Positions 6,278 to 26,049 of a stretch of 64,000 nt of DNA are shown here, piece by piece. The position numbers and the translations under genes were made by a program. The DNA comes from Escherichia phage vB_EcoM_LNA4: the sequence record MZ311864.1; one strand, written 5' to 3'. Below the pieces are notes generated by a model. It was not told where the DNA came from. It worked only from the letters and a program-made list of their open reading frames with translations, and made no database searches. Numbering within the stretch: position 1 is the first letter of the stretch; each line of letters opens with the position of its first letter.

Positions 6278-6741
6278 TATGCACGTACCTCTGTTACCTT
6301 CACGGTTGCTTCACCGCGAAGCTGGATGTTAGAACCATCATCGAGAGTGAGAATGATATCGTCGCCACTGATTTTGTGACCCTTAACGACATAATCTTTA
6401 CCCCACATCTCTACCTTATCGCCCATCACGACATTTTTCGCCTTGTAATCACCAGGCAGGCGATCTTCATCGCTAACCGCTTCGTAAAGGTCGCTAAAAG
6501 CCTGTGGAGACATTGCTGTGAACTGATCGCCCACCTTTACAATGTAATCGCCTGGAAACGCCTGAACGCCGTTAACGTCCATATTTCGGATATCCCGTGT
6601 ATGGATCTCAGAATCTTTCCATACCCCGGTCTCGATCCACTTGGTCACTTGACCAACCCCGGTGCTAGACCCATTGAATACGTGTGCTTCAACCTCTTGA
6701 GGTTTACGACTATAGAATCCCATTAGTAGACTGGCTCCCAT
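6277..6741 (-). CDS. hypothetical protein
   Basis: 154-aa ORF, stop/start abutting its neighbours. Confidence 0.4.
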   Translation of the reverse strand: MGASLLMGFYSRKPQEVEAHVFNGSSTGVGQVTKWIETGVWKDSEIHTRDIRNMDVNGVQAFPGDYIVKVGDQFTAMSPQAFSDLYEAVSDEDRLPGDYKAKNVVMGDKVEMWGKDYVVKGHKISGDDIILTLDDGSNIQLRGEATVKVTEVRA

Positions 6742-8027
6742 GTTAATGTGTTAAGTTCACGTACACTCTGCCCCACTGGGAACTGAGGTACACCATCATC
6801 AGTACGCGACTGGAATGTAAAGTTGATGAAACCACCAACCAACAGCAACATCTTCGCCTGAGAACGTTCTGCGTGTGTGCCTTTCATTTTACAGTTGAAT
6901 CGTGTTCCGTCCTGTTCTTCGCAAAGCAGAACACCTTCACCATTTTTGTCCTCTACAGAATCAAGGACTTTGGCCTCACCGTCCTGGAACAGCTTCCATT
7001 TCTGGAGATCAGTGGATCGCTGCCCGAACTCATATTTACCTTTGAAGTTTCGGATGATAACACCCTCAAACCCGGCTTCCATGTAATAACCGATAAAGCG
7101 TTTCACAGATGCTTCGTCTTTCACGAACTCGCCATGAACGATAGCAATCTTAGGAACATCAATCTCACATTCTACAGCTTCAGCCACAGCATTAAGATCA
7201 GCCATACGGGTTTGATCATGATCCTGAGAGTGCCAAGGACTGTGTGCATTCACTGGAATATCAAAGATATGATACTCAAGGTCAAGACTCGAATAACCGC
7301 TATAACGATCAACATCCTTCACAGGTTTATACGTTGAAACAGCCCACACGTTACCGTCAAAGTCTTTCCAGAGGTGTTCCCCTGCTGCAACCGCCTTGTT
7401 GTAACGCTTGATATCTGCTTGATAATCTTTTTCGATCTCAGCTTCAATCTGCTCAGGTGTACGCCACTTCTTAGCGAGAGCAACAATCTTCTGTAGACTC
7501 AGGCCATGAATATACAGTTCCCCATCGAACTTGTCAAACCCGGAATGCTCTGCAAGTTCTTTAACCTGTTGCAAAAGAGCACCCTGCACTGGATACGTCT
7601 TATTACCACGGCTATTGAACACTGGAATGCCGTCCTTGTCAAGCGTGACAAGAGCACGAACGCCGTCGAGCTTTGGCTGCACATAGGCAGGATAAACGAT
7701 AGCTGAAAATCGTTTGATCGCATCATGCGCCAGCATAGGAGAGAAGTTCTCTTCCGTCTGCAACTCTTCCTTAGTCTCACGATAACCTAAACGGACTTGC
7801 TTTTCCCATTTGGATCTTGCTTCAAGAACCGCTTGGAATACGGCAGTAGTCTCATTGGAACGGCCAATGTTTTTCATTTCACACTTGGTACGCTTTTGTT
7901 GAATCTTTCCGTTTTCCTTACCGAAAGAAACGACAACCTCATCACCTTCTGTGGTTACATTCCAAACTTGGTACGATCCGTCTTTGTTGAGAGCGTACAG
8001 TGTTGGTGTGTCTAAACTAATTGACAT
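6723..8027 (-). CDS. ATP-dependent DNA ligase
   Basis: KLDGVR adenylation motif I, EGVIIRN motif IV and LQKWK motif V in a 434-aa protein. Confidence 0.7.
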   Translation of the reverse strand: MSISLDTPTLYALNKDGSYQVWNVTTEGDEVVVSFGKENGKIQQKRTKCEMKNIGRSNETTAVFQAVLEARSKWEKQVRLGYRETKEELQTEENFSPMLAHDAIKRFSAIVYPAYVQPKLDGVRALVTLDKDGIPVFNSRGNKTYPVQGALLQQVKELAEHSGFDKFDGELYIHGLSLQKIVALAKKWRTPEQIEAEIEKDYQADIKRYNKAVAAGEHLWKDFDGNVWAVSTYKPVKDVDRYSGYSSLDLEYHIFDIPVNAHSPWHSQDHDQTRMADLNAVAEAVECEIDVPKIAIVHGEFVKDEASVKRFIGYYMEAGFEGVIIRNFKGKYEFGQRSTDLQKWKLFQDGEAKVLDSVEDKNGEGVLLCEEQDGTRFNCKMKGTHAERSQAKMLLLVGGFINFTFQSRTDDGVPQFPVGQSVRELNTLTWEPVY

Positions 8028-8803
8028 TATTTCTCCTTCTTCTGTAAAGGCGTTTTTCCTTCAAGGTGGTCTTCAACCATCTTGATTAAACCGGGATTGC
8101 TGAAAGCATCAACAGCACCTGTACGATAAACGATAACACCCGCATCTTCATACATCAACTGCTCATCATAGCGAACACCGGGGTTAACAACCACCACCTT
8201 TGTTCCTCTCATGACAGCAGGGAAAAGTTCCCAGTTGAAGTTGATCACTGTGTTTGAACATCCAACCACAATCACCATATCCTCAGATGTCAAGCTGTCC
8301 AAGGTTGAGTATAGCTGCCCGTATGCAGGCGCAGTTTCACCAAAAAAGATAACGTTAGGCTTACACCAACCATAATCATCTGGGTCAATCTGCTCATAAC
8401 CAACATCAATGATCTTTTTAGGTGATCCAGCCTCAGTCTCAATCACCAACTCTTTCAGATAACCATGAATATAAAGCGTATCTTCTTTAGGAACACCTGC
8501 ACGTTCCAATAGATCATCAACGTTAGTTGTCAAGTTAATAACCTGGTTCGGATAGTTTTTATACCACTCTGCCACACGCATATGTGCAGCATTAGGATGC
8601 ACAGTTTGCAGTTCTGCACGACGCTTGTTATAAAAGGTGTGCGTCTTATGGTAAAAATTACCACGAAAGGCATGAATGTTGCAGACCTCTTCAAGGTCAT
8701 ACTCATCCCACAAGGCCTTACCGGAGTCGGTGTCAGTACGGAATGTACGAACACCGCTCTCAGCAGAGAAACCAGCACCACTAATTACATATAAACGCCT
8801 CAT
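8027..8803 (-). CDS. Sir2-family (sirtuin-like) NAD-dependent protein
   Basis: GAGFSAESGVRTFR, TTNVDDLLERAG and IHG motifs match Sir2 NAD-binding and catalytic signatures. Confidence 0.6.
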   Translation of the reverse strand: MRRLYVISGAGFSAESGVRTFRTDTDSGKALWDEYDLEEVCNIHAFRGNFYHKTHTFYNKRRAELQTVHPNAAHMRVAEWYKNYPNQVINLTTNVDDLLERAGVPKEDTLYIHGYLKELVIETEAGSPKKIIDVGYEQIDPDDYGWCKPNVIFFGETAPAYGQLYSTLDSLTSEDMVIVVGCSNTVINFNWELFPAVMRGTKVVVVNPGVRYDEQLMYEDAGVIVYRTGAVDAFSNPGLIKMVEDHLEGKTPLQKKEK

Positions 8804-9024: not shown

Positions 9025-9909
9025 TCACTGTAATTTCAATGAGTTACGCAGACGACGCTCTTGAGCATCACGGGTTTCCTGCGGAACGCTGTGAATAGAA
9101 TCATTGCCATGACGGTTCTCTACCACCAAGCTAATGACGCGATACCCATTCTCGGCTGCGAGGTCGAGGTATGGTTTCAGTTCTTTTTCACTGGTAGAGG
9201 TGTTAGACACGATGATCCTACGGAAATTCCAACCCATCATGTCCTTAACTTCTGACTGGCACCATGTGTGTGCCGCCTGAATATTCTCAGGTTTCCAGTC
9301 ATAAACACCATCTTCCGTATAGTGGAATTTATCTGCTTCACAGACAGGCCACAAACCCTCTGACAGCATCTTTCCCGTTGTCATATTACGAGCACCAATC
9401 AGATACGCACCAGGTTGTTCGTGAACTATATGCGGGTCAGAATCATCACAAATTTCAAACATTAAAGTCAAACAAGATTGCCCTACATGTGTCCACATGG
9501 ATGGGTGGTTTGCCTTTTCAACACCACTCAAAATATGAGTTTTTGCAATATCTGCAAATTCGGAATCAAGAGTTCCGGTGGTGGATACTAAAACATCGCC
9601 TTTATAAATTGAGGCCGCTGCCATAAAGCCATTAACTTTACGAGGTACACACACCAACTGGTCTCGTGGAACATCGGTATTATTCTCGAAGCGGTTGAAA
9701 ATCTTCGTGAAAGGCCAGATAACAACGTTGTCTTCTGCATCAACAACCATGCCACGGCACTCCAGAAGACGTGCGTCTGTGTGCCACAGGTTATCCCAGA
9801 ACACATTGTTCTTATATTTCAGAACAGACAGACCCGCGAACGGGCCTTCGGTATAAGTCTTTTTGGTTACAAGCTTTTTAGCAACAAGGTCATCTACGTT
9901 AAATTTCAT
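9025..9909 (-). CDS. hypothetical protein (KxNG nucleotidyltransferase-like motif)
   Basis: 294-aa ORF; PRKVNGF resembles ligase motif I, but the other ligase motifs are not convincing. Confidence 0.35.
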   Translation of the reverse strand: MKFNVDDLVAKKLVTKKTYTEGPFAGLSVLKYKNNVFWDNLWHTDARLLECRGMVVDAEDNVVIWPFTKIFNRFENNTDVPRDQLVCVPRKVNGFMAAASIYKGDVLVSTTGTLDSEFADIAKTHILSGVEKANHPSMWTHVGQSCLTLMFEICDDSDPHIVHEQPGAYLIGARNMTTGKMLSEGLWPVCEADKFHYTEDGVYDWKPENIQAAHTWCQSEVKDMMGWNFRRIIVSNTSTSEKELKPYLDLAAENGYRVISLVVENRHGNDSIHSVPQETRDAQERRLRNSLKLQ

Positions 9910-10113: not shown

Positions 10114-10509
10114 TTAACTACGCTTTTCGTAACCTTCTGCCTGATAGTAGGTAGTATTGTGCGGCGTTTCAATGCTAAAACTGATCTGGCAGAGTTCTTG
10201 GGCTAAGAATGTACCAAGTTCTACAGCCATGTCAAGGATTTCATGCTCAGGTCGCTCAAAGCGAGGATATTGCATGATCCGGACAGTCATACCGTCCTCA
10301 ACACCCCCGGTATACACGTAGGTACACGGGGAGATCTGCACACAAGCGCCCTTCATTACCCACTGGCGGCACAGGTTTTCAGCCTGATTGTAGTTCCCAG
10401 CGATGTGAATTGTTGCATAGAACGACTTAGAAGTCTTCTTTGGTAAAAAGTTACGTTTCTTATTGTGCATATTATTATCCGTGATCAGCAGTGTAAATTG
10501 GTTTAGCAA
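10114..10509 (-). CDS. hypothetical protein
   Basis: 131-aa ORF. Confidence 0.4.
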   Translation of the reverse strand: MLNQFTLLITDNNMHNKKRNFLPKKTSKSFYATIHIAGNYNQAENLCRQWVMKGACVQISPCTYVYTGGVEDGMTVRIMQYPRFERPEHEILDMAVELGTFLAQELCQISFSIETPHNTTYYQAEGYEKRS

Positions 10510-11071
10510 GGCACATCAGAACAGCTTCACGCATCGTCAAAGGACGACCATGCACATCCCAACCCACATCAAGAATACGTCCACCAGGGGCCGTGTAGGA
10601 GCCGTGGCTGTGACCGTGCAGCATTACCGACCCGTGGTGAGCTTTATTCCATGATGCAAACGGATAGTGGGACATACACACCTTCACCTTTTCTTTCCCG
10701 GTGCTGAACTCAATTTCCTTATAGTCCACGACTTCATGACCAAACTCACGGAAGATACGTTTTGTCTGATGGTTGTCATGATTACCACCAACCAGAATGA
10801 TCTTCCCATTGATACGGCTCAGGATATCACGAACTTTTGGCTCAACTTGCTTACCATAGGCAATAACGAAATCACCAAGGTGTGCCACCACATCGTCAGG
10901 CTTGACGTTTTTGTTCCACGTCTTAACCATGTCATCGTTCATTTTGACAACGGAGGCTGAGTCTTCTTTCGGACCATACAGGTTCTTACGGAACTTATCA
11001 CACGATGGGAAACCAAGAATGTTGGTGTGCCACCAGTGAGTGTCTGACGTGACGTGATCAATTTGAATCAT
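10475..11071 (-). CDS. calcineurin-like metallophosphoesterase (Ser/Thr phosphatase-like)
   Basis: DTHW, GDFV, GNHD and GHSHG metal-binding motifs. Confidence 0.6.
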   Translation of the reverse strand: MIQIDHVTSDTHWWHTNILGFPSCDKFRKNLYGPKEDSASVVKMNDDMVKTWNKNVKPDDVVAHLGDFVIAYGKQVEPKVRDILSRINGKIILVGGNHDNHQTKRIFREFGHEVVDYKEIEFSTGKEKVKVCMSHYPFASWNKAHHGSVMLHGHSHGSYTAPGGRILDVGWDVHGRPLTMREAVLMCLAKPIYTADHG

Positions 11072-12677: not shown

Positions 12678-13490
12678 ATGAGTATTGAATTACGTTTGAA
12701 CAAACTGGTTGTTCCTGTAGACCACTTCACCTTTAAGGGTGGTGAGGAACAGGTCAAAATTGACCTAAAACACGCACCAAAAGGCGGTATTGGTTTCGTA
12801 GATATCACTGCCAAAATCAAAAATTCAACTGATGTCATGGCACTGGCTATGTTGGTGGATGCGTGTTCCCGTTTGGAAGGATTGCATAACCACGCAGAGT
12901 TCACCCTGCACCTTCCATACATCCCGTATGCACGTCAAGACCGTGTAATGAACCCAGGTGAAGCGTTATCTATTAAGGTTTTCGCAAACATTGTCAACTC
13001 GCTTGGTTTCGACACGGTTATCGTTGATGACCCGCACAGCGATGTCTCTGCTGCACTGCTCAATAACGTCCGTATCCGTGGTCAGGATGTTCTTATTTCC
13101 GAGATGAAAGATCTTGGCAACTCCACATTGCATAGCAACTCTTTGGTTGTGGTAGCACCTGATGCGGGTGCTCGCAAGAAAGCCCATAAGGTTGCTGACC
13201 GATTCAGTCTTCCTCTTGTTGAGGCTGGTAAAGTACGTGATTTGCAGACCAACGAAATCACTGGTACTGCGGTGTTCGGAGATGTTGAAGGTAAAGTGTG
13301 TATGATTGTTGATGATATCTGCGACGGTGGTCGTACATTCATCGCCCTTGCACAGGCCCTGAAAGAAAACGGTGCGAAACGTGTTATCCTGTACGTTACT
13401 CACGGTATCTTTTCTTTCGGTAAACAGGTCATCCTCGATGGTGGGGTTGATGAAATCTATGCGTATCATGACTGGACGGAGAATTTTTAA
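12678..13490 (+). CDS. ribose-phosphate pyrophosphokinase-family enzyme (Prs-like; candidate Adps)
   Basis: YARQDR and PRPP-binding loop MIVDDICDGGRT, VVAPDAGA; 270 aa. Confidence 0.7.
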   Translation: MSIELRLNKLVVPVDHFTFKGGEEQVKIDLKHAPKGGIGFVDITAKIKNSTDVMALAMLVDACSRLEGLHNHAEFTLHLPYIPYARQDRVMNPGEALSIKVFANIVNSLGFDTVIVDDPHSDVSAALLNNVRIRGQDVLISEMKDLGNSTLHSNSLVVVAPDAGARKKAHKVADRFSLPLVEAGKVRDLQTNEITGTAVFGDVEGKVCMIVDDICDGGRTFIALAQALKENGAKRVILYVTHGIFSFGKQVILDGGVDEIYAYHDWTENF

Positions 13491-14076: not shown

Positions 14077-15762
14077 ATGCTTAATCAAGAAAGTCCTATC
14101 CTGTTTGCAGACTTTTACAAACCTTCACACATCTCCATGTATGATAAACGTTCTGAAATTGTTCAGGACAACATGACTCCGCGTAACGCGAAGCATTTCA
14201 TTCACTTTGCTGATAATGACAAGCGTGTCATGTTCGCAGGCATCCAAGGTTTTATTAAGTGGTTCCTGATCGATATGTTCAACAATAACTTCTTCAATCT
14301 TCCGAAAGAAGAGGCTGTTGCTGATTATCGTGAGGTTTGCGATTCAAGTATCGGCATCGGTATGGTTGAAACATGGGGCTTTGAGGCGCTTCATGATCTT
14401 GGCTATCTTCCTCTTGAAATTCGTGCTCTTCCAGAGGGAACACTGTCTCCTGTTCAGGTTCCAATGTTCACAATCCAGAACACGCACCCTGATTTTTACT
14501 GGTTACCGAACTTCTTGGAAAGCGTGATTTCAGCAGAAACCTGGAAAACTATCACAACTGCAACTACCTTCTGGCAGTATCGTAAACTGTCTGAAGCATG
14601 GGCTGCTGAAACCTGTGATAACAATCTGCACGTTCCATTCCAGAACCACTGCTTCGCATATCGCGGTGAATCTGGTACTCACGATGCAGCACAGAGCGAG
14701 TTTGGTCAACTGATCAACTCAATGGGTACAGACACTATTCCTGCGATTCTGTATGCTCGCCGTTATTACAACATGAAAGGTAAGTTTGTTGCCGGGTCTA
14801 TCCCAGCATCAGAACACAGTGTTGCTACAACCAACATCGGCTTCATCGTTGGTCGCCTGAAAACAGAACATCCTGATTTGTCTCTGGATGAACTGCGTTT
14901 CCTGGCTGAAGTTGAATTCCTGAAACGCTACATCACGGAAATTTTCCCGAAAGGTTTTGTTTCCTACGTAGCAGACAGCTATGACTTCTGGGCGATTATT
15001 ACTCGTGCAGCACTGATTCTGAAAGAAGAGATCATGGCGCGTGACGGTCGTGTTGTATTCCGTCCTGATTCAGGCATCCCAGAGCATATTATTGCTGGTT
15101 ATCGTTGTTATGGTGATTTCTTAAATGAAGATAATCTTCTTGAAGAACTGTCTTTAGATAAGGATTCGAAAGCGGAGGTTGTTATTTTAAAAGGGAAATA
15201 TTATTTCCTTGACCGTGATGAGAATAGCCATATCTGTGGCATTGGTAATGAGCTTACTCGCCACGAGGCTGTTGGTGCTGTTCAGTGCCTGTGGGATATC
15301 TTTGGTGGTGAAGTTAACTCCAAAGGCTATAAAGTTCTGGATACGCATGTAGGGTTAATCTATGGTGACTCGATTACCGTTGCCCGTGCAAAAGATATCT
15401 TTGAGCGTCTGAGAGATCGTGGTTTTGCATCCAGCAATATCGTATTTGGTGTTGGCTCTTTCACGACACAGTACACAACCCGTGATTCACTGGGTATGGC
15501 TGTGAAGGCAACTGGTGCGGTTATTGATGGTCAGCAGATCATGGTTGTCAAAGAACCGAAGACTGATCTCGGCAAGAAATCTGCAAAAGGTTTCCTGAAG
15601 GTTGTTCGTGATGATAATGGCGAACTGAGACTGGTTGACAATTGTCAGCTTGAAGATGTACAGTCTGACGATAACGAACTGCGTCGTGTGTTCTACAACG
15701 GCAAACTGATTGTCGATGAAGACCTGACAACGATTCGTGAACGAGCAGCCGCTCAACTGTAA
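14077..15762 (+). CDS. nicotinamide phosphoribosyltransferase-family enzyme (NadV-like; candidate Namat)
   Basis: 561-aa protein with RPDSG and GSIPASEHS Nampt-like motifs; AAGGAG Shine-Dalgarno. Confidence 0.7.
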   Translation: MLNQESPILFADFYKPSHISMYDKRSEIVQDNMTPRNAKHFIHFADNDKRVMFAGIQGFIKWFLIDMFNNNFFNLPKEEAVADYREVCDSSIGIGMVETWGFEALHDLGYLPLEIRALPEGTLSPVQVPMFTIQNTHPDFYWLPNFLESVISAETWKTITTATTFWQYRKLSEAWAAETCDNNLHVPFQNHCFAYRGESGTHDAAQSEFGQLINSMGTDTIPAILYARRYYNMKGKFVAGSIPASEHSVATTNIGFIVGRLKTEHPDLSLDELRFLAEVEFLKRYITEIFPKGFVSYVADSYDFWAIITRAALILKEEIMARDGRVVFRPDSGIPEHIIAGYRCYGDFLNEDNLLEELSLDKDSKAEVVILKGKYYFLDRDENSHICGIGNELTRHEAVGAVQCLWDIFGGEVNSKGYKVLDTHVGLIYGDSITVARAKDIFERLRDRGFASSNIVFGVGSFTTQYTTRDSLGMAVKATGAVIDGQQIMVVKEPKTDLGKKSAKGFLKVVRDDNGELRLVDNCQLEDVQSDDNELRRVFYNGKLIVDEDLTTIRERAAAQL

Positions 15763-19868: not shown

Positions 19869-19943
19869 GCTCCTAAAGCATAAGTGGCGATGCAGCGGCC
19901 TTGTAAGCCGAGGAAGTGGGTTCGATTCCTACTGGGAGCACCA
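19869..19943 (+). tRNA. tRNA-Thr (TGT)
   Basis: Acceptor GCTCCTA/TGGGAGC, anticodon loop CTTGTAA, T-loop GGGTTCGATTCC, CCA encoded. Confidence 0.6.
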
Positions 19944-19949
19944 AACAAT

Positions 19950-20023
19950 TCGTTGATAGCCTTAGCGGTAAAGGCCCCCTCTGCGCAAGGGGTTCAGTGG
20001 TTCGAATCCACTTCAGCGAGCCA
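19950..20023 (+). tRNA. tRNA-like element, non-canonical (anticodon-position GCG, C37, 3-nt variable loop); possible pseudo-tRNA
   Basis: Good acceptor stem, T-arm AGTGGTTCGAATCCACT and CCA, but the anticodon loop CTGCGCA and D/variable regions are atypical. Confidence 0.3.
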
Positions 20024-20025
20024 AT

Positions 20026-20134
20026 GCAGGGTAGGCGGTTTGTCAACCGCGAGGTCCATCCAGACCTGAAAATAGCTCTCGGCTTGGAGTGGAGAGTGAA
20101 TACATAGGTGGTTAGATTCCACCACCCTGCTCCA
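20026..20134 (+). tRNA. tRNA-like element with a 38-nt insertion between anticodon arm and T-arm
   Basis: 7-bp acceptor GCAGGGT/ACCCTGC, D-stem GCGG/CCGC, anticodon arm AGGTC-CATCCAG-GACCT, T-arm GGTGG-TTAGATT-CCACC and CCA; far too long for a standard tRNA. Confidence 0.25.
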
Positions 20135-20325
20135 AAACATATTTTAAAGTGCATTAGCTCAGATTATTTGATTCACGGACTGATCATCTGTGAGGAGAAT
20201 GAGCCTAACTGAATGGAGTTTCAACGACAAAGGCCACGTTGTTGTAACAGAAGTTCTAAGGTCGTAGAGCGCTGTTCGCGGAGAACAGAGGTCGGTGGAG
20301 TCACCATGCAGCTTAAAATATGTTT

Positions 20326-20403
20326 GCGCTCTTGGTCCAATCTGGTAGAGGCATGGGTGTTAAGCTCCCAGGGTTCCCGGTTCGAGTCCGGGAGGGCGCA
20401 CCA
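20326..20403 (+). tRNA. tRNA with anticodon TAA (Leu-type) in a short-variable-arm scaffold
   Basis: Acceptor GCGCTCT/AGGGCGC, T-arm CCCGG-TTCGAGT-CCGGG, CCA; anticodon stem has a closing mismatch, loop GTTAAGC. Confidence 0.4.
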
Positions 20404-20406
20404 GAA

Positions 20407-20481
20407 CGGGGTATAGTCTAGAGGATAGGCAGGAGTCTTCTAAACTCCTTTACGTAGGTTCGAATCCTACTACCTCGACCA
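20407..20481 (+). tRNA. tRNA-Arg (TCT)
   Basis: Canonical cloverleaf; anticodon loop CTTCTAA; T-loop GGTTCGAATCC; CCA. Confidence 0.65.
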
Positions 20482-20486
20482 CTTAT

Positions 20487-20560
20487 GCGCGGTTGCTGGA
20501 GTGGCAACAGCTTCGGCTGCAAACCGAATGTCAGGTGTTCGATTCACCTACCGTGCTCCA
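20487..20560 (+). tRNA. tRNA-Cys (GCA)
   Basis: Anticodon arm TTCGG-CTGCAAA-CCGAA; T-arm AGGTG-TTCGATT-CACCT; CCA. Confidence 0.6.
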
Positions 20561-20599
20561 AGTTGTTGATATTTTTTGCTATAAATGATAAAATAACCC

Positions 20600-20628
20600 T
20601 TGACAGAGATATTGAACTCTGATAACAT
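20600..20628 (+). promoter_or_regulatory. sigma70-like promoter TTGACA-N17-TAACAT
   Basis: -35 at 20600-20605, -10 at 20623-20628; upstream of the ORF at 20647. Confidence 0.45.
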
Positions 20629-20646
20629 GAATAAGTGGGGTTAATT

Positions 20647-21012
20647 ATGGCAACAAAACAAGCACTTACCAAGCGTCGTAGAGGTAAGGGTCGTCCTTTA
20701 AAAGAGGAGTCTAACGCAATTCAGCTTGAGAAGAACATTCTTGATCTGAAAACAAAGATGATTGCTATGATCCCTGATGCACATATGGTCCTTCGTGATC
20801 TTATGATGAACAAGGATACTAAAGACAACATCCGTGAGAATATTGCTCGTTTCGTTATTGAGGAAGGTAAGCAAATGCTTTCTGATTACTTCGATGAAGA
20901 GAACGAAAATGAAGAAGAAACAAAGAACGTCGATGATGGTTCCGGAAAGGGCGCTGATAAACCAGTAGCAAAACCTTTCTCAACTGACATCGTACAGTTC
21001 AAACAAGGTTAA
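20647..21012 (+). CDS. hypothetical protein with basic N-terminus
   Basis: Track ORF trimmed to ATG 20647; TKRRRGKGRP basic segment, acidic C-terminal half. Confidence 0.45.
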   Translation: MATKQALTKRRRGKGRPLKEESNAIQLEKNILDLKTKMIAMIPDAHMVLRDLMMNKDTKDNIRENIARFVIEEGKQMLSDYFDEENENEEETKNVDDGSGKGADKPVAKPFSTDIVQFKQG

Positions 21013-21014
21013 TT

Positions 21015-21102
21015 GGGGCGGTTCCCGGAGCGGCAAACGGGCGGGATTGTAAATCCCTTGGCATCGCGTCCTTCGTAGGTTCGAGTCCTACTCGCCCCAC
21101 CA
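21015..21102 (+). tRNA. tRNA-Tyr (GTA), long variable arm
   Basis: Acceptor GGGGCGG/TCGCCCC, anticodon loop TTGTAAA, 17-nt variable arm, T-arm GTAGG-TTCGAGT-CCTAC, CCA. Confidence 0.55.
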
Positions 21103-21108
21103 ATTAAC

Positions 21109-21183
21109 GGGAGTATAGCTCAGTGGTAGAGCAAACGGTCGATAACCGTTAGGTCGCTGGTTCAAGCCCAGCTACTCCCACCA
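21109..21183 (+). tRNA. tRNA-Ile (GAT) with C33
   Basis: Canonical arms (GCTCAGTGGTAGAGC D-arm); anticodon loop TCGATAA has C at position 33. Confidence 0.5.
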
Positions 21184-21189
21184 ATTTAA

Positions 21190-21263
21190 GCGGTTAAGCA
21201 CAAGGTGTGTCGCAGGCCTTCCAAGCCTCGCAGAGTAGGGTTCGATTCCCTCTAACCGCTCCA
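21190..21263 (+). tRNA. tRNA-Gly (TCC)
   Basis: Acceptor GCGGTTA/TAACCGC; anticodon loop CTTCCAA; short D-arm; CCA. Confidence 0.55.
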
Positions 21264-21270
21264 AATAAAT

Positions 21271-21346
21271 GCTCCTATCGGCTAAACGGTCAGGCCGCCA
21301 GACTTTCAATCTGGAAATCCGAGTTCGATTCTCGGTGGGAGTGCCA
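21271..21346 (+). tRNA. tRNA-Glu (TTC)
   Basis: Anticodon arm CCAGA-CTTTCAA-TCTGG; T-arm CCGAG-TTCGATT-CTCGG; CCA. Confidence 0.6.
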
Positions 21347-21353
21347 AATTTGT

Positions 21354-21430
21354 AGGGACTTAGCACAATTGGCTAGTGCAGCGGATTCCAAATCCGCAGG
21401 TTCTGGGTTCGAATCCCAGGGTCCCTGCCA
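21354..21430 (+). tRNA. tRNA-Trp (CCA)
   Basis: Anticodon arm GCGGA-TTCCAAA-TCCGC; T-arm CTGGG-TTCGAAT-CCCAG; CCA. Confidence 0.6.
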
Positions 21431-21435
21431 GTTTT

Positions 21436-21511
21436 AGGAGGATGGTGTAATTGGTTAGCACACGGGGCTTTGATCTCCGGAGTTAGGGTTCGAGTCCTTA
21501 TCTTCCTGCCA
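21436..21511 (+). tRNA. tRNA-Gln (TTG)
   Basis: Anticodon loop CTTTGAT; T-arm TAGGG-TTCGAGT-CCTTA; CCA. Confidence 0.55.
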
Positions 21512-21625
21512 AGTTTGAGTGTTTTTATTTGAAAGCACTCATGCGTGGCCTAAGCATTTATCAGATGATGTTCAACCTGTGACGTTGAGGAAGTGGGAGC
21601 GATACCCACAGGTCACCCCAATTTT

Positions 21626-21718
21626 GGTGGAATGGTCGAGCGGTTTAAGACAGCACCTTGGAAAGGTGTCGGCCCCTTCAAACGGGGTCCGTAGGTTCGA
21701 ATCCTACTTCCACCGCCA
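21626..21718 (+). tRNA. tRNA-Ser (GGA), long variable arm
   Basis: Acceptor GGTGGAA/TTCCACC, anticodon loop TTGGAAA, ~21-nt variable arm, T-loop GGTTCGAATCC, CCA. Confidence 0.6.
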
Positions 21719-21732
21719 CTTTAGGAGATATT

Positions 21733-21888
21733 ATGCAGAAACTTTTGCGTTGTAAAAAGGTATTTGGACGCTGTAAGATTCACGGTAGTAACTGTGGTGT
21801 TGCAGATGAAATTCAATCAATCCCTATTACTCGTGCGAAAGAAAAAGCAGATCTTCGTAAAGAAATTAAAGAACAATTGGAAGATTAA
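21733..21888 (+). CDS. small Cys-rich hypothetical protein
   Basis: 51-aa ORF (track ORF trimmed to ATG 21733, AGGAG Shine-Dalgarno); its last codons overlap the 5' end of the next tRNA. Confidence 0.35.
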   Translation: MQKLLRCKKVFGRCKIHGSNCGVADEIQSIPITRAKEKADLRKEIKEQLED

Positions 21889-21969
21889 CCCTAACGGTAA
21901 GGGATCTCTTTGCTAAAGAGACAGTAGCCCCTGAAAAGGGGTGTGTCAGTTCAAGTCTGACATCTTCCT
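21879..21969 (+). tRNA. tRNA-Ser (GCT), long variable arm, CCA not fully encoded
   Basis: Acceptor GGAAGAT/ATCTTCC, anticodon arm TCTCT-TTGCTAA-AGAGA, variable arm with CCCC/GGGG stem, T-arm GTCAG-TTCAAGT-CTGAC. Confidence 0.5.
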
Positions 21970-21971
21970 CC

Positions 21972-22060
21972 GGAGAGCAGGCTGCATGGTGCAGACTCCG
22001 GTTTGAACCCGGTCCCATCGTAGCGATACGGTGACAGTTCGATTCTGTTGCTCTCCTCCA
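21972..22060 (+). tRNA. tRNA-Ser (TGA), long variable arm
   Basis: Acceptor GGAGAGC/GCTCTCC, anticodon loop TTTGAAC, long variable arm, T-loop AGTTCGATTCT, CCA. Confidence 0.5.
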
Positions 22061-22065
22061 AATAT

Positions 22066-22152
22066 GGGTTGGTAGCCAAGCGGCGACGTATGTCTAAGGC
22101 ACTCGACTTTTAATCGAGGGATCGTTGGGTTCGAATCCCACCCGACCCACCA
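22066..22152 (+). tRNA. tRNA-Lys (TTT) with expanded D region
   Basis: Acceptor GGGTTGG/CCGACCC, canonical anticodon arm CTCGA-CTTTTAA-TCGAG, T-loop GGGTTCGAATCCC, CCA; about 10 extra nt in the D region. Confidence 0.45.
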
Positions 22153-22157
22153 TACAA

Positions 22158-22260
22158 CGGGACGATAGTTTAATGAGGCTGGAAATGCGACGGCAACCAG
22201 CGGAGCAGAATGACGGGCATCCAGGACCGTAGGTGAGGTGCAAACCCTCAGATCCCGCCA
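22158..22260 (+). ncRNA. structured tRNA-like element (unclassified)
   Basis: 5' CGGGA pairs with 3' TCCCG followed by CCA; internal hairpins including TGAGG-TGCAAAC-CCTCA; not foldable into a standard cloverleaf by hand. Confidence 0.2.
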
Positions 22261-22321
22261 AATTGAAATAAGTTAAAATAATCCTTGCAAAAGATTGTTT
22301 TCACTGATAAAGTAATTACAT

Positions 22322-22410
22322 GGTTCTTTGACCGAGAGGCCGATGGTAGCAGGCTGTTAACCTGCCTGGAGTAATCCACGACGAAGGTTCGAATCCTTCA
22401 GGAACCGCCA
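22322..22410 (+). tRNA. type-II (Tyr-like scaffold) tRNA with anticodon GTT and discriminator G73 (candidate Asn decoder)
   Basis: Acceptor GGTTCTT/AGGAACC, Tyr-like D region CCGAGAGGCCGATGGTA, anticodon arm GCAGG-CTGTTAA-CCTGC, 17-nt variable arm, T-loop GGTTCGAATCC, G73-CCA. Confidence 0.45.
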
Positions 22411-22453
22411 AATTAGGTGATACGCTACCTTAAGTGCGAACTTGAAAATTAAT

Positions 22454-22530
22454 GGGGCCGTGGCTGACAAGGTAATGGTGCCGCACTGTCTATGCGGAAA
22501 ATGAGGGTTCGATCCCCTTCGGTCTCGCCA
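22454..22530 (+). tRNA. tRNA-Asp (GTC)
   Basis: Acceptor GGGGCCG/CGGTCTC (with G-U pairs), anticodon arm CCGCA-CTGTCTA-TGCGG, T-loop GGGTTCGATCCCC, CCA. Confidence 0.5.
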
Positions 22531-22713
22531 ATTTGATATGTTGATGTAAATTGCCGGAAGGCACTCAAAATGAGTTCGACATATCAAACCAAATACGCTC
22601 TTGCAGGAAAGGTTAGCCTCCCTGCAATGTCACACTAGGTGATCAGAGCGGATCAAATTAGCTAGCCAGCGATACCAGTTGCAGTGTCTGGGACAATTAA
22701 AATTCTGCACCTT

Positions 22714-22791
22714 CGGAGCGTAGCGCAGTCTGGTCAGCGTGGGAGCCTTGGATGCTCTGGGTCGCAGGTTCGAATCCTGCCGCTCCGACCA
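22714..22791 (+). tRNA. tRNA-Pro (TGG)
   Basis: Acceptor CGGAGCG/CGCTCCG, anticodon loop CTTGGAT, T-loop GGTTCGAATCC, CCA. Confidence 0.6.
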
Positions 22792-22796
22792 ATTTA

Positions 22797-22872
22797 GCAG
22801 GTATAGTTCAACTGGACAGAGCATCAGTTTACGAAGCTGAGAATCGGGGTTCGAATCCCTGTATCTGCACCA
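22797..22872 (+). tRNA. tRNA-Arg (ACG)
   Basis: Acceptor GCAGGTA/TATCTGC, anticodon arm TCAGT-TTACGAA-GCTGA, T-loop GGGGTTCGAATCCCT, CCA. Confidence 0.6.
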
Positions 22873-22907
22873 AATTAAGGCTTGGATTTCTTCGGACCCA
22901 AGCGCAC

Positions 22908-22984
22908 GGGCGATTGATGGAATTGGTATACGTGTCGGATTTAGATTCCGAATTTTGGGGGTTCGAGTCCCCTGTCGCCCACCA
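22908..22984 (+). tRNA. tRNA with anticodon TAG (Leu-type) in a short-variable-arm scaffold
   Basis: Acceptor GGGCGAT/GTCGCCC, anticodon arm TCGGA-TTTAGAT-TCCGA, 5-nt variable loop, T-loop GGGGGTTCGAGTCCCCT, A73-CCA. Confidence 0.5.
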
Positions 22985-22991
22985 ATCCTTC

Positions 22992-23067
22992 GGGACTGTA
23001 GCTCAGTTGGTAGAGCACCTGATTGAAGATCAGGGTGTCGGTGGTTCGAATCCACTCGGTCCCGCCA
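22992..23067 (+). tRNA. tRNA-Phe (GAA)
   Basis: Textbook cloverleaf: D-arm GCTCAGTTGGTAGAGC, anticodon arm CCTGA-TTGAAGA-TCAGG, T-loop GGTTCGAATCC, CCA. Confidence 0.7.
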
Positions 23068-23073
23068 AATAAT

Positions 23074-23146
23074 TGCGAGCTAGAATTCTGGTGAATTCAC
23101 GAGTCTCATAAGCTTGTTCAGAGGGGTTCGATTCCGCTGCTCGCAA
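23074..23146 (+). tRNA. tRNA-Met/Ile2 (CAT), CCA not encoded
   Basis: Acceptor TGCGAGC/GCTCGCA, D-arm GAAT/ATTC, anticodon loop CTCATAA, T-loop GGGGTTCGATTCC. Confidence 0.5.
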
Positions 23147-23163
23147 CTAACAGAGGACTTAAT

Positions 23164-23628
23164 GTGAAGATTTGTGGCAAGTGCAAAATAGAAAAAGACT
23201 TTGACCAGTTCCATAAGAAAGGAAAAGGTTATAATCATATTTGCAAAGTTTGCCGCAAAGAGTACATTAAGGATCACTACGAGAAGAACAAAGACGCTTA
23301 CAAGTCAAGATCTAAATCGTGGAAAGAAAACAATCCTCATCGTGTTATAGCTACACGATATGGTGTTGACGAAGATGTTGTTAAAGAAATAATGTCTGTC
23401 GGTAAATGCCAAATTTGCTCATCAACTGAAAACCTCGTGTTCGACCATGTTCACAAAACAAGCGAGCCTAGAGGTTGTTTGTGTCACTCATGCAATACAA
23501 TGCTTGGTCGTCTTGGTGATACTGAAGAACAAATCTTTAAGCGTATGGAAGCTATAAAATCTTATCTTACGCATCCAAAACAATGGGGTATCCAGGAACA
23601 GTCCTGCACCGTAAGTGTCCCTCAGTAG
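23164..23628 (+). CDS. HNH endonuclease (endonuclease VII-type motif), possible homing endonuclease
   Basis: GTG start; CGKCK...CKVC zinc-finger-like N-terminus and VFDHVHKTSEPRGCLCHSCNTMLG core. Confidence 0.5.
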   Translation: MKICGKCKIEKDFDQFHKKGKGYNHICKVCRKEYIKDHYEKNKDAYKSRSKSWKENNPHRVIATRYGVDEDVVKEIMSVGKCQICSSTENLVFDHVHKTSEPRGCLCHSCNTMLGRLGDTEEQIFKRMEAIKSYLTHPKQWGIQEQSCTVSVPQ

Positions 23629-23767
23629 GGAACACCCCACCAATTCAAAGTGGACACTAAGGAAGGTTTCGGCTGTGGAAACGGTTAGACACCCTCGACG
23701 AGTAAAATCCCTTCGCCACTTTTCATATTCTAATAATAATAAATATTCAATCTCCTCTCCTTTGCCT

Positions 23768-23797
23768 CGCCCCGCTCTTGCGGGGCTTTTCTTTTTC
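23768..23797 (+). terminator. rho-independent terminator
   Basis: CCCCGC-TCTT-GCGGGG hairpin followed by CTTTTCTTTTTC. Confidence 0.6.
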
Positions 23798-23837
23798 TGG
23801 TACACTCCAATGGTTAACTAAACCAAAGGAGAAAACC

Positions 23838-25262
23838 ATGCTTCATATCTACCCAAAAGAAGACTTCCAACGTGAATTCAACATCCTCAAAAGCCTGATC
23901 CCGAAAGGTGTGTATGAGATCCTTAAGCGCCTCGATGCTCGTGTTGCAGGTGGTACGCTGACATCACTTTTCTCTAACCGGGAAGTGAATGACCTTGATC
24001 TCTATTTCCCATCCTGGGAGAATCTTGAGGTTTTTCTGGCATACATGACTGATCGTGGACTCTTGGTTGGGGACAGCGATCTTACCCCAACTTCAAACAA
24101 CTGGGGCAACTCGAAGCGTTCATTCGTATACTTCCTTGAACTTGACAAGCCGGGTAGCCATAAAGACTACGTGAATGCCTTGGTATGCGAAAGAAAAGAA
24201 CGACCACCTACAGAGCTTTCAGCTAGCCAGCTTTCAAAGCTTTATTCTTTGCTTGAATCTCGTAATGGCAATGTTTTCAAGGCCATTCAAAAGGCCTCGG
24301 AAGATAACAACCCCGACACCATCTACAATCTGGGGATGACTGATAAGAGCGTCATGTTCACCAATCAATCCTCTCCCGTTATGCAGGTGATCGCATTTGA
24401 TGTTTTTGCTGATGCAGAGGCGATCTTTAACAAGTTCGATTTCACGATCAATATGGGCTGTTTTAGCTTTGCAAGCGAGAAATGGGAGTTTGATAGTCGC
24501 TTCCTGAAACACTTGGCTCAGAAAGTTCTGGTGATTAACCCAGGCACTGATTACCCCATTATCAGTATGCTACGCTCTGATAAGTATCGCGCCCGTGGCT
24601 ACACGATCTCTCGTCGAGAAACAATGAAGCTTGGTATTGCAGCGTCAGGACTTAAAATCGAGTCGTGGGAAGATGCCAAGGCACATTTGAGCGGGATGTA
24701 TGGTACAAACGTTGAAGACTTATTCAATGAAACAAGACCATTTTCATTTGATCTGTTATTTGATAAACTAGATTCAGCGGGGGATTATCTGATCGCCTCT
24801 ATCGCAACTGAATCCGAAAAAGGACAGTTCAGCAGATATCGTGGTCTGAAACCAGAGAACATCTTTACTATGTATCAACGGTTACGTATCAACACCGGGC
24901 GTCCACATTTCTCTAAGCTGTGGGGTGTCTGTCCGGCAGAGAACTTCTATTTGATGCAGGCCAACAATCCGCAACAGGCCGTTGGTCTTCTTGAGACAAA
25001 ACCTGCTGATAAACTCCTCAAGTACATGAACGTTTATATTGATGAGAAAGAGGCGTATGACGTTTACAAATCGTGGGGAGAGAAAGGAAAGACAGGGAGA
25101 TGGGGCGACAGATTATCAAAACCGGGGGCTGTGCTTCTGGAGGTCACTGTCCTTGACCCAACGAAAATCGCCTATGACGATGCACAGATTGACATTTTAG
25201 ATGATGAAGAAACGCTTCTGAAAATAGAGCGGCTTATTGAATCTAACGGGGATATTTCATGA
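23838..25262 (+). CDS. Pol-beta-superfamily nucleotidyltransferase (function unknown; candidate tRNA nucleotidyltransferase-like)
   Basis: Track ORF trimmed to ATG 23838 (AAGGAG Shine-Dalgarno); AGG-x12-DLDLY matches the hG[GS]...DhD nucleotidyltransferase signature; stop overlaps the i-spanin ATG. Confidence 0.35.
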   Translation: MLHIYPKEDFQREFNILKSLIPKGVYEILKRLDARVAGGTLTSLFSNREVNDLDLYFPSWENLEVFLAYMTDRGLLVGDSDLTPTSNNWGNSKRSFVYFLELDKPGSHKDYVNALVCERKERPPTELSASQLSKLYSLLESRNGNVFKAIQKASEDNNPDTIYNLGMTDKSVMFTNQSSPVMQVIAFDVFADAEAIFNKFDFTINMGCFSFASEKWEFDSRFLKHLAQKVLVINPGTDYPIISMLRSDKYRARGYTISRRETMKLGIAASGLKIESWEDAKAHLSGMYGTNVEDLFNETRPFSFDLLFDKLDSAGDYLIASIATESEKGQFSRYRGLKPENIFTMYQRLRINTGRPHFSKLWGVCPAENFYLMQANNPQQAVGLLETKPADKLLKYMNVYIDEKEAYDVYKSWGEKGKTGRWGDRLSKPGAVLLEVTVLDPTKIAYDDAQIDILDDEETLLKIERLIESNGDIS

Positions 25263-25663
25263 CAGACATATTGAACATGGTGATTTCCTTTATCAGGAAT
25301 AATACCAAACTGGTAGTTGCAGCATTCTTAGCCATTGCCCTGTTGTCCGGGGCAGTTTACACTAAACACTGGTACAACGACCAGATTACAGCATCTTATA
25401 ATCGTGGTGTGAAGGATACCGATGATAAGTGGGTCGCTAAACAACAAGAGAACAAGAATGCTAACCATGACTACAAAGACAATCAGCAGAAAGCTTCTGA
25501 TGAGTTGAGTAAACAACTTGAAGAAGAGAGGGCGAAGAATGCGAAGTTGCAGTCAGAGCTTGACAAGAAACAGGTCGCCTATCAGAACTCCGATAATGGG
25601 AAGAAGAAGGGTCTGGACAATGACTTTGTGGACATCTACAACGAGAGCCTGGGGTTGAAATGA
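25259..25663 (+). CDS. i-spanin (Rz-like)
   Basis: N-terminal transmembrane helix then a charged coiled-coil periplasmic domain; ATGA overlap with the next gene. Confidence 0.5.
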   Translation: MTDILNMVISFIRNNTKLVVAAFLAIALLSGAVYTKHWYNDQITASYNRGVKDTDDKWVAKQQENKNANHDYKDNQQKASDELSKQLEEERAKNAKLQSELDKKQVAYQNSDNGKKKGLDNDFVDIYNESLGLK

Positions 25664-25950
25664 GAAAGACAATCATAGCCGTATTGGTCGCTACAGCGCT
25701 TGTTAGCGGGTGCAGAAATCCTCCTGAAGTCGTACCTGTTGTGCAAAAGTTTAACCCGGCAGAGGTGCTAGCGAAGCCCCCTGCTGGGGCAATGGTTGAC
25801 CCTGTTGAACCAACACCACTCCCTTATGGTGCAGACAACTCGGTAAACAGTGCGATCATGAAGAAGAATAACATTGACGGAGCCAATGACCGTAGCAAAC
25901 TACGCATACTCCAGCAATATATCCGAAACATATTTGATCCTAAAAAGTAA
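25660..25950 (+). CDS. o-spanin lipoprotein (Rz1-like)
   Basis: Signal peptide with lipobox LVSGC and a proline-rich mature region; 96 aa. Confidence 0.5.
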   Translation: MRKTIIAVLVATALVSGCRNPPEVVPVVQKFNPAEVLAKPPAGAMVDPVEPTPLPYGADNSVNSAIMKKNNIDGANDRSKLRILQQYIRNIFDPKK

Positions 25951-25958
25951 TTGACAAG

Positions 25959-25990
25959 GCCCTTATTTTATGATAAGGGCTTTATTTTTA
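25959..25990 (+). terminator. rho-independent terminator
   Basis: GCCCTTAT/ATAAGGGC 8-bp stem then TTTATTTTTA, right after the o-spanin stop. Confidence 0.5.
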
Positions 25991-26049
25991 TCAGGTTTCA
26001 TGGTAAACTACCTCCTATAGGCCAATTTAAGGCACAAAATGGAGGTCTT

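Follow-up and report, generated by a model that had tools for sequence, protein, structure and literature searches.

Gabija is a highly prevalent defense system made up of GajA, an OLD-family ATPase-Toprim nuclease, and the GajB helicase. Gad2 was described by Yirmiya et al. as the second Gabija anti-defense protein (bioRxiv 10.1101/2023.05.01.538930). In that study, knockout of gad2 rendered SPbetaL7 sensitive to Gabija, co-expression of a homolog from a Brevibacillus prophage abolished Gabija defense, and these two proteins were the only ones assayed against Gabija among the 170 homologs counted. SPbetaL7 Gad2 was toxic on expression whereas the Brevibacillus homolog was non-toxic yet fully anti-Gabija, and AlphaFold gave a nucleotidyltransferase domain for Gad2 (same reference). 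A review of February 2026 places Gad2 among the inhibitors with mechanisms 'yet to be elucidated' (PMC12904381). Here we describe a Gad2-like gene in a 64,000-nucleotide stretch of DNA from Escherichia phage vB_EcoM_LNA4 (MZ311864.1; the whole stretch is hereafter called the window), a Seunavirus (a myovirus of the Vequintavirinae). By homology, its product of 474 amino acids belongs to the Gad2 family, which is already known for anti-defense, and it represents no new system and no part of the lysis machinery.

Membership in the family is indicated by several searches. A search of 5.8 billion proteins returned 47 homologs, all of which carry the precomputed Pfam accession PF26128 ('Gad2'); the assignment of the query to PF26128 is made through these labels on homologs, each at most 92% identical to it. 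By tblastn against phage genomes the family was found in 138 phage records, including a coding sequence annotated Gad2 in Bacillus phage SPbetaL6. BLASTP against SPbetaL6 Gad2 gave an E value of 6e-33 over the core, plus one of 2e-11 over motif A, and hhalign of the family profile against the same protein gave a probability of 100% (E 4e-54) over 331 columns, the C-terminal domain included. Relatives are encoded on 102 stretches of the IMG/VR viral contig collection, and a profile search of 1.84 billion cluster representatives (50% identity) recovered 4,099 family members at E <= 1e-3. The Gad2 family is thus much bigger than the 170 homologs first reported. Scans of the query itself with Pfam, in a library without PF26128, and with NCBIfam returned no match. 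In PHROGs the protein falls in families of unknown function, with separate families for its two halves and one marginal match named 'nucleotidyltransferase' over residues 28-70. The protein is 100% identical to its copies in Enterobacter phage EC152 and Cronobacter phage vB_CsaM_GAP31 (GAP31), where it is GAP31_193, labeled 'hypothetical protein', and the surrounding DNA (23100-26000) is 98.7-98.8% identical to the same two phages.

The automatic listing of open reading frames (ORFs) has the gene at 23778-25262, from an upstream TTG. We place the start at ATG 23838, as the initial annotation had done, because GGAG lies seven bases 5' of it, the TTG extension would cross a hairpin, and 46 of 46 homologs start at that methionine. 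The gene and the parts of its product are as follows; pLDDT is the predicted local distance difference test score and ART stands for ADP-ribosyltransferase.

23838..25262, + strand: Gad2-family (Pfam PF26128) class II nucleotidyltransferase, 474 amino acids (assigned by homology, profile and model)
23826..23831, + strand: Shine-Dalgarno-like AGGAGA, its GGAG seven bases before ATG 23838 (direct reading)
23940..24011, + strand: motif A of the nucleotidyltransferase head (residues 35-58, RVAGGTLTSLFSNREVNDLDLYFP), with the GG turn and putative metal-binding D52 and D54
24051..24317, + strand: lineage-specific insertion of ~90 amino acids (residues ~72-160), mostly low-confidence helices (pLDDT 44-60 over residues 110-160)
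24372..24458, + strand: core strand with invariant Q183, followed by motif-B-like KFDFTINM (invariant D201 and N205, and M206)
24534..24605, + strand: neck helix region INPGTDYPIISMLRSDKYRARGYT (invariant N234, T237, R246, K249 and Y250), the motif D region without EDxxR
24840..25259, + strand: C-terminal alpha/beta domain (residues 335-474) with a predicted ART-like fold

The initial annotation had called the product a nucleotidyltransferase from an hG[GS]-x12-DLDLY signature and had proposed comparing a predicted structure with known nucleotidyltransferases. The call was right, and the comparison sharpens it to class II, the type of CCA-adding enzymes and poly(A) polymerases. The AlphaFold2 model, built on a 47-sequence alignment, recovered a nucleotidyltransferase fold with a mean pLDDT of 81.2 and a predicted template modeling score (pTM) of 0.78, and its low-confidence parts are limited to the variable insertion and one linker. 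The closest structural match is poly(A) polymerase I. Matches include E. coli PcnB (PDB 3aql) and bacterial and eukaryotic CCA-adding enzymes (3h37, 1miv and 1ou5), with ~190-200 residues aligning per match, which corresponds to the class II head and neck. The signature is present as AGG-x12-DLDLY: G38-G39 is followed by 12 residues and then D52-L-D54-L-Y56. This is no chance pattern match, since A37, G38, G39, D52, D54 and Y56 are at least 90% conserved in the 47 family members. The most conserved columns of the family also include M206, Y288 and G289, and the eight further residues named as invariant in the list above are so throughout the 47-sequence alignment. The ~90-residue insertion is variable, gapped in distant homologs, and missing from SPbetaL6 Gad2.

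Alignment with PcnB and Cca shows which parts of a class II active site may have been kept. The hhalign comparisons with these enzymes reached a probability of 5.6% or less and are used for motif correspondence only. Motif A (GGTLTSLFSNREVNDLDL) aligns with GGGVRDLLLGKKPKDFDV of PcnB, and KFDFTINM aligns with RRDFTINS of PcnB and RRDLTINA of Cca. The motif D region of the query appears as NPGTDYP--IISMLRSDKYRARGY and NPGTDYP--IISMLRSDKY in alignments with class II enzymes, the latter with PcnB. In class II enzymes, the RRD of motif B selects ribose and the EDxxR of motif D selects the C and A bases. Both EDxxR and the RRD arginines are absent from the query in the alignment with PcnB and Cca, and RRD is replaced by KFD. 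The alignments and the model thus indicate that the metal site and the general class II architecture are retained and that the nucleotide-selection motif is lost. Sequence searches of the PDB with the protein (phmmer) and with the family profile (hmmsearch) returned nothing meaningful. The query has no match to PF01743, the PolyA_pol head, at E <= 1, and two distant family members match it with E values of 0.0034 and 0.12, below the gathering score. A Foldseek search of BFVD found the same core in many uncharacterized giant-virus proteins (Klosneuvirus, Pithovirus, Pandoravirus and Catovirus), often fused to ankyrin, BTB or VWFA domains. The matches there are mostly uncharacterized viral proteins; a few carry generic labels only, such as nucleotidyltransferase, ankyrin-repeat, BTB or VWFA protein and, once, giant-virus CCA-adding enzyme.

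The second half of the protein is unlike that of the class II enzymes. The resemblance of the C-terminal domain to the ART fold is consistent over many ART structures, and hhalign indicates that SPbetaL6 Gad2 shares the domain. Known ART catalytic motifs are H-Y-E, R-S-E, or the R-H-R-R of Tpt1. Conserved catalytic residues were sought for this domain in the family alignment and none were found. On the predicted structure, we read the domain as a non-catalytic module that may bind a ligand or a nucleic-acid end. The proteins of the ADP-ribosyltransferase fold compared (SCOP d.166.1) were BC2332-like proteins, Tpt1/KptA, PARP and diphtheria toxin; SCOP, as quoted in PMC3000352, includes BC2332-like, Tpt1/KptA and CC0527-like families in the ADP-ribosylation superfamily. 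In the literature accessible to us, we found no description of an ART-like domain in Gad2.

What might such a protein do for the phage? We consider it probable, at roughly 0.6, that it is a cytoplasmic enzyme of the Gad2 family that acts as an accessory counter-defense against Gabija-type immunity. The protein would have two parts, an N-terminal class II template-independent nucleotidyltransferase (head and neck) and a C-terminal non-catalytic ART-like domain, and it would act by catalysis and not by caging of the Gabija complex. The most likely chemistry would be the addition of nucleotides to an RNA or DNA 3' end that the defense needs, senses or damages. DNA ends figure in current models of Gabija, which blocks the circularization of linear phage DNA lacking RecBCD activity (PMC12407980), and the P2 OLD nuclease, a relative of GajA, cuts tRNA anticodon stems (PMC12445682). 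Either DNA or tRNA ends could be the substrate. Enzymatic action on cellular substrates is plausible because SPbetaL7 Gad2 is toxic and because cytotoxicity in Pseudomonas putida has been seen for a phage nucleotidyltransferase that has homologs labeled Gad2-family in some phages.

Several points weigh against this assignment. Identity to validated Gad2 is only ~33-36% in the core, and the protein carries the 90-residue insertion in addition. The validated examples are from Bacillus and Brevibacillus phages and do not concern an enterobacterial Gabija. The addition of nucleotides to 3' ends is drawn from the fold, since the review cited above counts Gad2 among inhibitors with mechanisms still to be worked out (PMC12904381). 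Moreover, when aligned by eye, the invariant glutamine Q183 falls in the strand that has a glutamate in poly(A) polymerase and CCA-adding enzymes (IEVATF versus MQVIAF for poly(A) polymerase), so the catalytic geometry may differ from that of canonical class II enzymes. PADLOC and NCBIfam gave no match to the protein, and neither is built to detect anti-defense proteins. The main contextual argument is that the gene heads the late structural region together with the spanin genes, after a terminator, and a sequence scan found no strong sigma-70-like promoter for it. A late-region position without a strong promoter of this type is unexpected for an anti-defense gene that acts early.

A wider proposal, which we regard as speculative and rather improbable, is that the Gad2 family tails or heals the 3' ends of nucleic acids, with a class II nucleotidyltransferase core joined to an ART/Tpt1-like end-recognition module, and that its substrates are tRNAs or DNA ends that are broken or linear. 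If that is the case, the placement of family genes by tRNA arrays, RNA and DNA ligases and phosphoesterases would mark a phage end-repair toolkit against OLD-family nucleases such as GajA, and Gabija immunity would depend, as P2 OLD does, on damaged RNA or DNA ends that phages can mask or mend by enzymes.

Conservation of the gene and of its surroundings bears on all of these readings. The order of tRNA array, Gad2-like gene, i-spanin gene with a 4-nucleotide overlap, o-spanin gene and terminase large-subunit gene is kept in Proteus phage Mydo, where the Gad2-like protein is 46% identical, and in 8-9 of 10 Vequintavirinae loci. In Salmonella phages of the PVP-SE1 type (PVP-SE1, SSE121 and SEW_6S, three independent records), a frameshift splits the gene near residues ~180-190 (~10480-10690 of the PVP-SE1 locus), and the gene of Raoultella phage Ro1 has its frameshift near residue 39. 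The split genes may represent loss-of-function alleles that arose naturally; in PVP-SE1, slippage at Lys-Lys codons of the AAAAAA type is also conceivable. The frameshifts mark the gene as a dispensable accessory.

Outside the Vequintavirinae, 71 viral loci could be compared, and no single partner gene is conserved across them. The neighbors of the family gene there are mostly replication and nucleotide-metabolism genes, among them those for DNA polymerase III alpha (identified in one locus by its precomputed Pfam labels), primase-helicase, ribonucleotide reductase, dCMP deaminase, ThyX and DNA methylase. An ATP-dependent DNA ligase gene lies directly 3' of the family gene in four loci and a Metallophos_2 phosphoesterase gene is present in six. 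RNA ligase genes stand beside it in three loci, and in one of these the Gad2 homolog starts at the RNA ligase stop codon. One cell-wall hydrolase family recurs ~2.5 kb from the family gene. The window has its own trio of end-processing enzymes 12-17 kb upstream of the Gad2-like gene, namely a T4 Rnl1-like RNA ligase (9025-9909, - strand), an ATP-dependent DNA ligase (6723-8027, - strand) and a calcineurin-like phosphoesterase (10475-11071, - strand); the same kinds of enzyme recur near Gad2 homologs of other phages.

The features that surround the gene in the window are these.

19869..23147, + strand: tRNA gene array, ending 5' of the cassette (ARAGORN, Rfam)
23164..23628, + strand: endonuclease VII/HNH-type ORF (Pfam PF02945, E 2.6e-13; PHROG 2633)
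23769..23796, + strand: terminator-like hairpin GCCCCGC-TCTT-GCGGGGC (23769-23786, seven G-C pairs) and T run, with the tail TTTTCTTTTT
25259..25663, + strand: i-spanin (Rz-like), 134 amino acids, with an N-terminal transmembrane segment (PHROG 4297, E 9.5e-51)
25660..25950, + strand: o-spanin (Rz1-like lipoprotein), 96 amino acids, with the lipobox LVSGC (PHROG 1267, E 2.5e-23; weak Pfam LPAM_1 match)
25956..25993, + strand: terminator-like hairpin (25956-25983, 12-pair stem) with the tail ATTTTTATCA, between the o-spanin gene and the terminase large-subunit gene

The first hairpin closes the tRNA/endonuclease unit just 5' of the Gad2-like gene. The stop codon of the Gad2-like gene (TGA, 25260-25262) overlaps the ATG of the i-spanin gene (25259-25261) in an ATGA at 25259-25262, and a second ATGA (25660-25663) joins the i-spanin stop to the o-spanin start. 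The 4-base overlap and the flanking terminator-like hairpins suggest that the three genes are transcribed and translated together as a small unit. The initial annotation had presented the nucleotidyltransferase gene as coupled to the spanin pair. The ATGA is real, and the junction is conserved in relatives (ATGA in eight of ten Vequintavirinae loci and GTGA in one more), but it is not distinctive, since exact 4-nucleotide overlaps are routine in the window (7 of 64 same-strand neighboring ORF pairs; any overlap, 17 of 64). As a sign of functional coupling to lysis, the overlap was rejected as non-specific. We read the arrangement of the Gad2-like gene with the spanin genes as ordinary genome packing where the tRNA region meets the late genes, with no shared lysis function.

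The Rz-like and Rz1-like genes placed by the initial annotation 3' of the Gad2-like gene stood up to the PHROG matches given above. The i-spanin has a single N-terminal hydrophobic segment (~residues 18-36, with the hydrophobic maximum at residue 18), and an i-spanin with a transmembrane segment followed by an o-spanin with a lipobox is what was found for a two-component spanin of the Rz/Rz1 type with separated architecture. The orthologs in Proteus phage Mydo were annotated as I-spanin and O-spanin by CPT annotators. The statement that no holin or endolysin gene is adjacent also held, as RefSeq annotates neither within 9 kb to the left or right of the gene in the near-identical GAP31. The terminase large-subunit ORF was automatically listed from TTG 25951, inside the second hairpin. 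Its true start is likely TTG 26050, which is preceded by GGAGG and agrees approximately with the GAP31 annotation.

ARAGORN found 22 tRNA genes in the array, 20 of them with an encoded CCA. The two without it bear out the earlier count: Ser-GCU (21879-21971) ends in TCC directly against the following tRNA, whereas the other, a Met-CAU-like gene at the end of the array (23074-23147, 74 nucleotides), is below the Rfam tRNA gathering score. Relatives encode CCA at both positions, with Ser-GCU ending in TCCA or ACCA and the last tRNA-like gene in TCCA. The idea that the CCA-less genes create a need for a phage CCA-adding enzyme was therefore rejected, given that relatives encode CCA there and that one of the two genes is a doubtful tRNA. 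In relatives (loci L008-L012, ~9722-9891) ARAGORN calls the last tRNA-like gene an 82-nucleotide Ala-GGC with a long D-arm insertion; the anticodon loop of this gene in relatives contains CAU. An Rfam tRNA at 22066-22149 (+ strand) was not reported by ARAGORN, and the ARAGORN genes Arg-GCG (19950-20023) and Ser-UGA (21972-22060) are below the Rfam gathering score. A tRNA-Thr(UGU) is encoded at 19869-19943 (+ strand); phage tRNA-Thr(UGU) genes rescue cells from the P2 OLD nuclease (PMC12445682).

The endonuclease ORF sits between the last tRNA-like gene, which it abuts, and the cassette. The ~99%-identical GAP31 lacks the ORF here, and its match begins only at window position ~23724 and runs onward. 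Its DNA with flanks (23126-23806) is 92.5% identical to that of Klebsiella Mydovirus phages, whose neighboring Gad2-like proteins are only ~46% identical. The absence from GAP31 and the high identity to Mydovirus DNA suggest that the ORF is probably a recently transferred, mobile homing endonuclease.

The initial annotation had held a tRNA-related, an anti-defense and a lysis-associated role to be equally possible. The anti-defense role is now the best supported of the three, through homology to validated Gad2, and the equality does not hold: a canonical CCA-adding role is disfavored, and a lysis role has nothing but adjacency in its favor. One possibility within the first of these roles is that the protein is a divergent CCA- or A-adding enzyme that matures or repairs tRNA 3' ends and, together with the RNA ligase, services the phage tRNA array or tRNAs damaged by defense. 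Its fold is that of class II tRNA nucleotidyltransferases, in every Vequintavirinae locus the gene comes directly after the tRNA array, CCA is missing from two of the 22 tRNA genes, and RNA ligase genes are found both in the window and, once with a stop-start overlap, in the three family loci mentioned above. The GajA relative P2 OLD destroys tRNA (PMC12445682), although tRNA cut by it is beyond repair by the phage ligases T4 Rnl1 and Rnl2 (same reference). A tRNA gene lies within 1.7 kb in 8 of the 13 tRNA-bearing loci against ~22% expected (P ~0.002 by locus and ~0.01 by lineage, with small numbers). Phage tRNA genes tend to cluster with accessory genes generally, so this proximity is suggestive at best; moreover, 58 of the 71 loci outside the Vequintavirinae have no tRNA gene in their flanks (up to 10 kb a side). 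The EDxxR templating motif, which would confer specificity for CCA or A, is absent, the ART-like domain stands where class II enzymes have the tRNA-holding body and tail, and neither CCA-less gene is a conserved feature, one of them lying at the edge of the homing-endonuclease insertion and below the Rfam threshold. On these three grounds a canonical CCA-adding function is unlikely, although the substrate may still be an RNA 3' end. In addition, a Cca enzyme is already supplied by the enterobacterial host (E. coli cca), and the gene is frameshifted in PVP-SE1 although the full tRNA array is kept. A tRNA maturation or repair enzyme is, on balance, a quite unlikely account of this gene.

It is also possible, although unlikely, that the protein serves host takeover: it would tail or modify host RNAs, much as an overexpressed poly(A) polymerase or the MenT toxins do, and so shut off translation or RNA metabolism of the host, with any anti-Gabija effect as a by-product. 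That poly(A) polymerase I is the closest structural match and that SPbetaL7 Gad2 and the P. putida-active phage nucleotidyltransferase are toxic would both fit. So would the toxicity in E. coli of a small CCA-enzyme-like nucleotidyltransferase of Klebsiella phage fHe-Kpn01, for which membership in the Gad2 family is not shown. MenT-type nucleotidyltransferases are reported to block tRNA by 3' extension (PMC11541572). However, because the Brevibacillus homolog is non-toxic yet fully anti-Gabija, toxicity and anti-defense are separable; the gene is dispensable in several relatives, and its placement in the late region sits poorly with an early role in host shut-off. Far less credible still is a role in lysis alongside the spanins, in which the protein might control or time the disruption of the outer membrane and which would account for the conserved translational coupling. 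It draws on the conserved overlap with the i-spanin gene, on the three-gene unit between terminator-like hairpins and on the position of the spanin genes apart from any holin or endolysin gene. Against it, the protein is soluble, with no hydrophobic segment or signal peptide, and its fold is that of a nucleic-acid nucleotidyltransferase. No spanin-like neighbor recurs in the 71 loci outside the Vequintavirinae, where the recurrent annotated neighbors are replication, nucleotide-metabolism and nucleic-acid-end enzymes plus the one cell-wall hydrolase family; 4-nucleotide overlaps are common in the window; and phages of the PVP-SE1 type keep their spanin genes though the Gad2-like gene is frameshifted.

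Two further groups of genes in the window may be recorded here. The first is related to nicotinamide adenine dinucleotide (NAD).

12678-13490 (+ strand), 14077-15762 (+ strand) and 8027-8803 (- strand): NAD-related genes, comprising phosphoribosyl-pyrophosphate-synthetase-like, nicotinamide/nicotinate phosphoribosyltransferase (Nampt in GAP31) and Sir2-family genes (GAP31 annotation, homology)

The phosphoribosyltransferase probably belongs to a NARP2-type NAD+ reconstitution pathway; a pangenome paper reports that gad2 and NARP2 co-occur perfectly in Erwinia phages. The second is a gene for an SPFH/Band 7 family protein (3269-4159, - strand; Pfam PF01145, E 1.9e-21).

The reading of the 474-residue protein as an anti-Gabija enzyme has consequences beyond this phage. 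The gene is a 'hypothetical protein' in GAP31, EC152, 4MG, PVP-SE1, Mydo and dozens of Klebsiella, Salmonella, Cronobacter and Erwinia phages, and several such phages are candidates for therapy or biocontrol. A Gad2 identity predicts that these phages evade Gabija, but that frameshift variants such as PVP-SE1 do not. A class II fold without the selection motif, an ART-like C-terminal domain, and ligase and tRNA neighbors offer leads for the mechanism of Gad2. The family itself is already known, and the residual novelty lies in the class II/ART-like architecture, in the leads from the ligase and tRNA neighborhood, and in the conserved placement in the Vequintavirinae.

The protein can be compared with several known systems. 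With the class II CCA-adding enzymes and poly(A) polymerases it shares the head fold and motif A (GG-x(9-13)-DxD); where these enzymes have an alpha-helical body and tail that bind a tRNA or RNA primer, the query has the ART-like domain instead. The T4 tRNA repair enzymes (Pnkp and Rnl1) and the MenT and AbiEii toxins are enzymes that act on RNA ends in phage-host conflict, and the window has the Rnl1-like ligase described above. Gad1 has the same reported target, Gabija, but no sequence relationship to the query, and it 'cages' the GajAB complex and blocks DNA cleavage by Gabija in vitro, whereas Gad2 is a predicted enzyme. The closest relatives with a described function are the Gad2 proteins of SPbetaL6 and SPbetaL7, which are phage-encoded, are homologous to the query over the nucleotidyltransferase core and the C-terminal domain, and share with it the motifs GG...DxD, FDFT(I/V) and N.xT..PI(I/V)SLLR..KY. 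Beyond the core identity already given, the query differs from validated Gad2 in the ~90-residue insertion after motif A, in its Gram-negative host, and in its location, as its gene lies between a tRNA array and the spanin genes whereas the SPbeta phages have a dedicated anti-Gabija locus.

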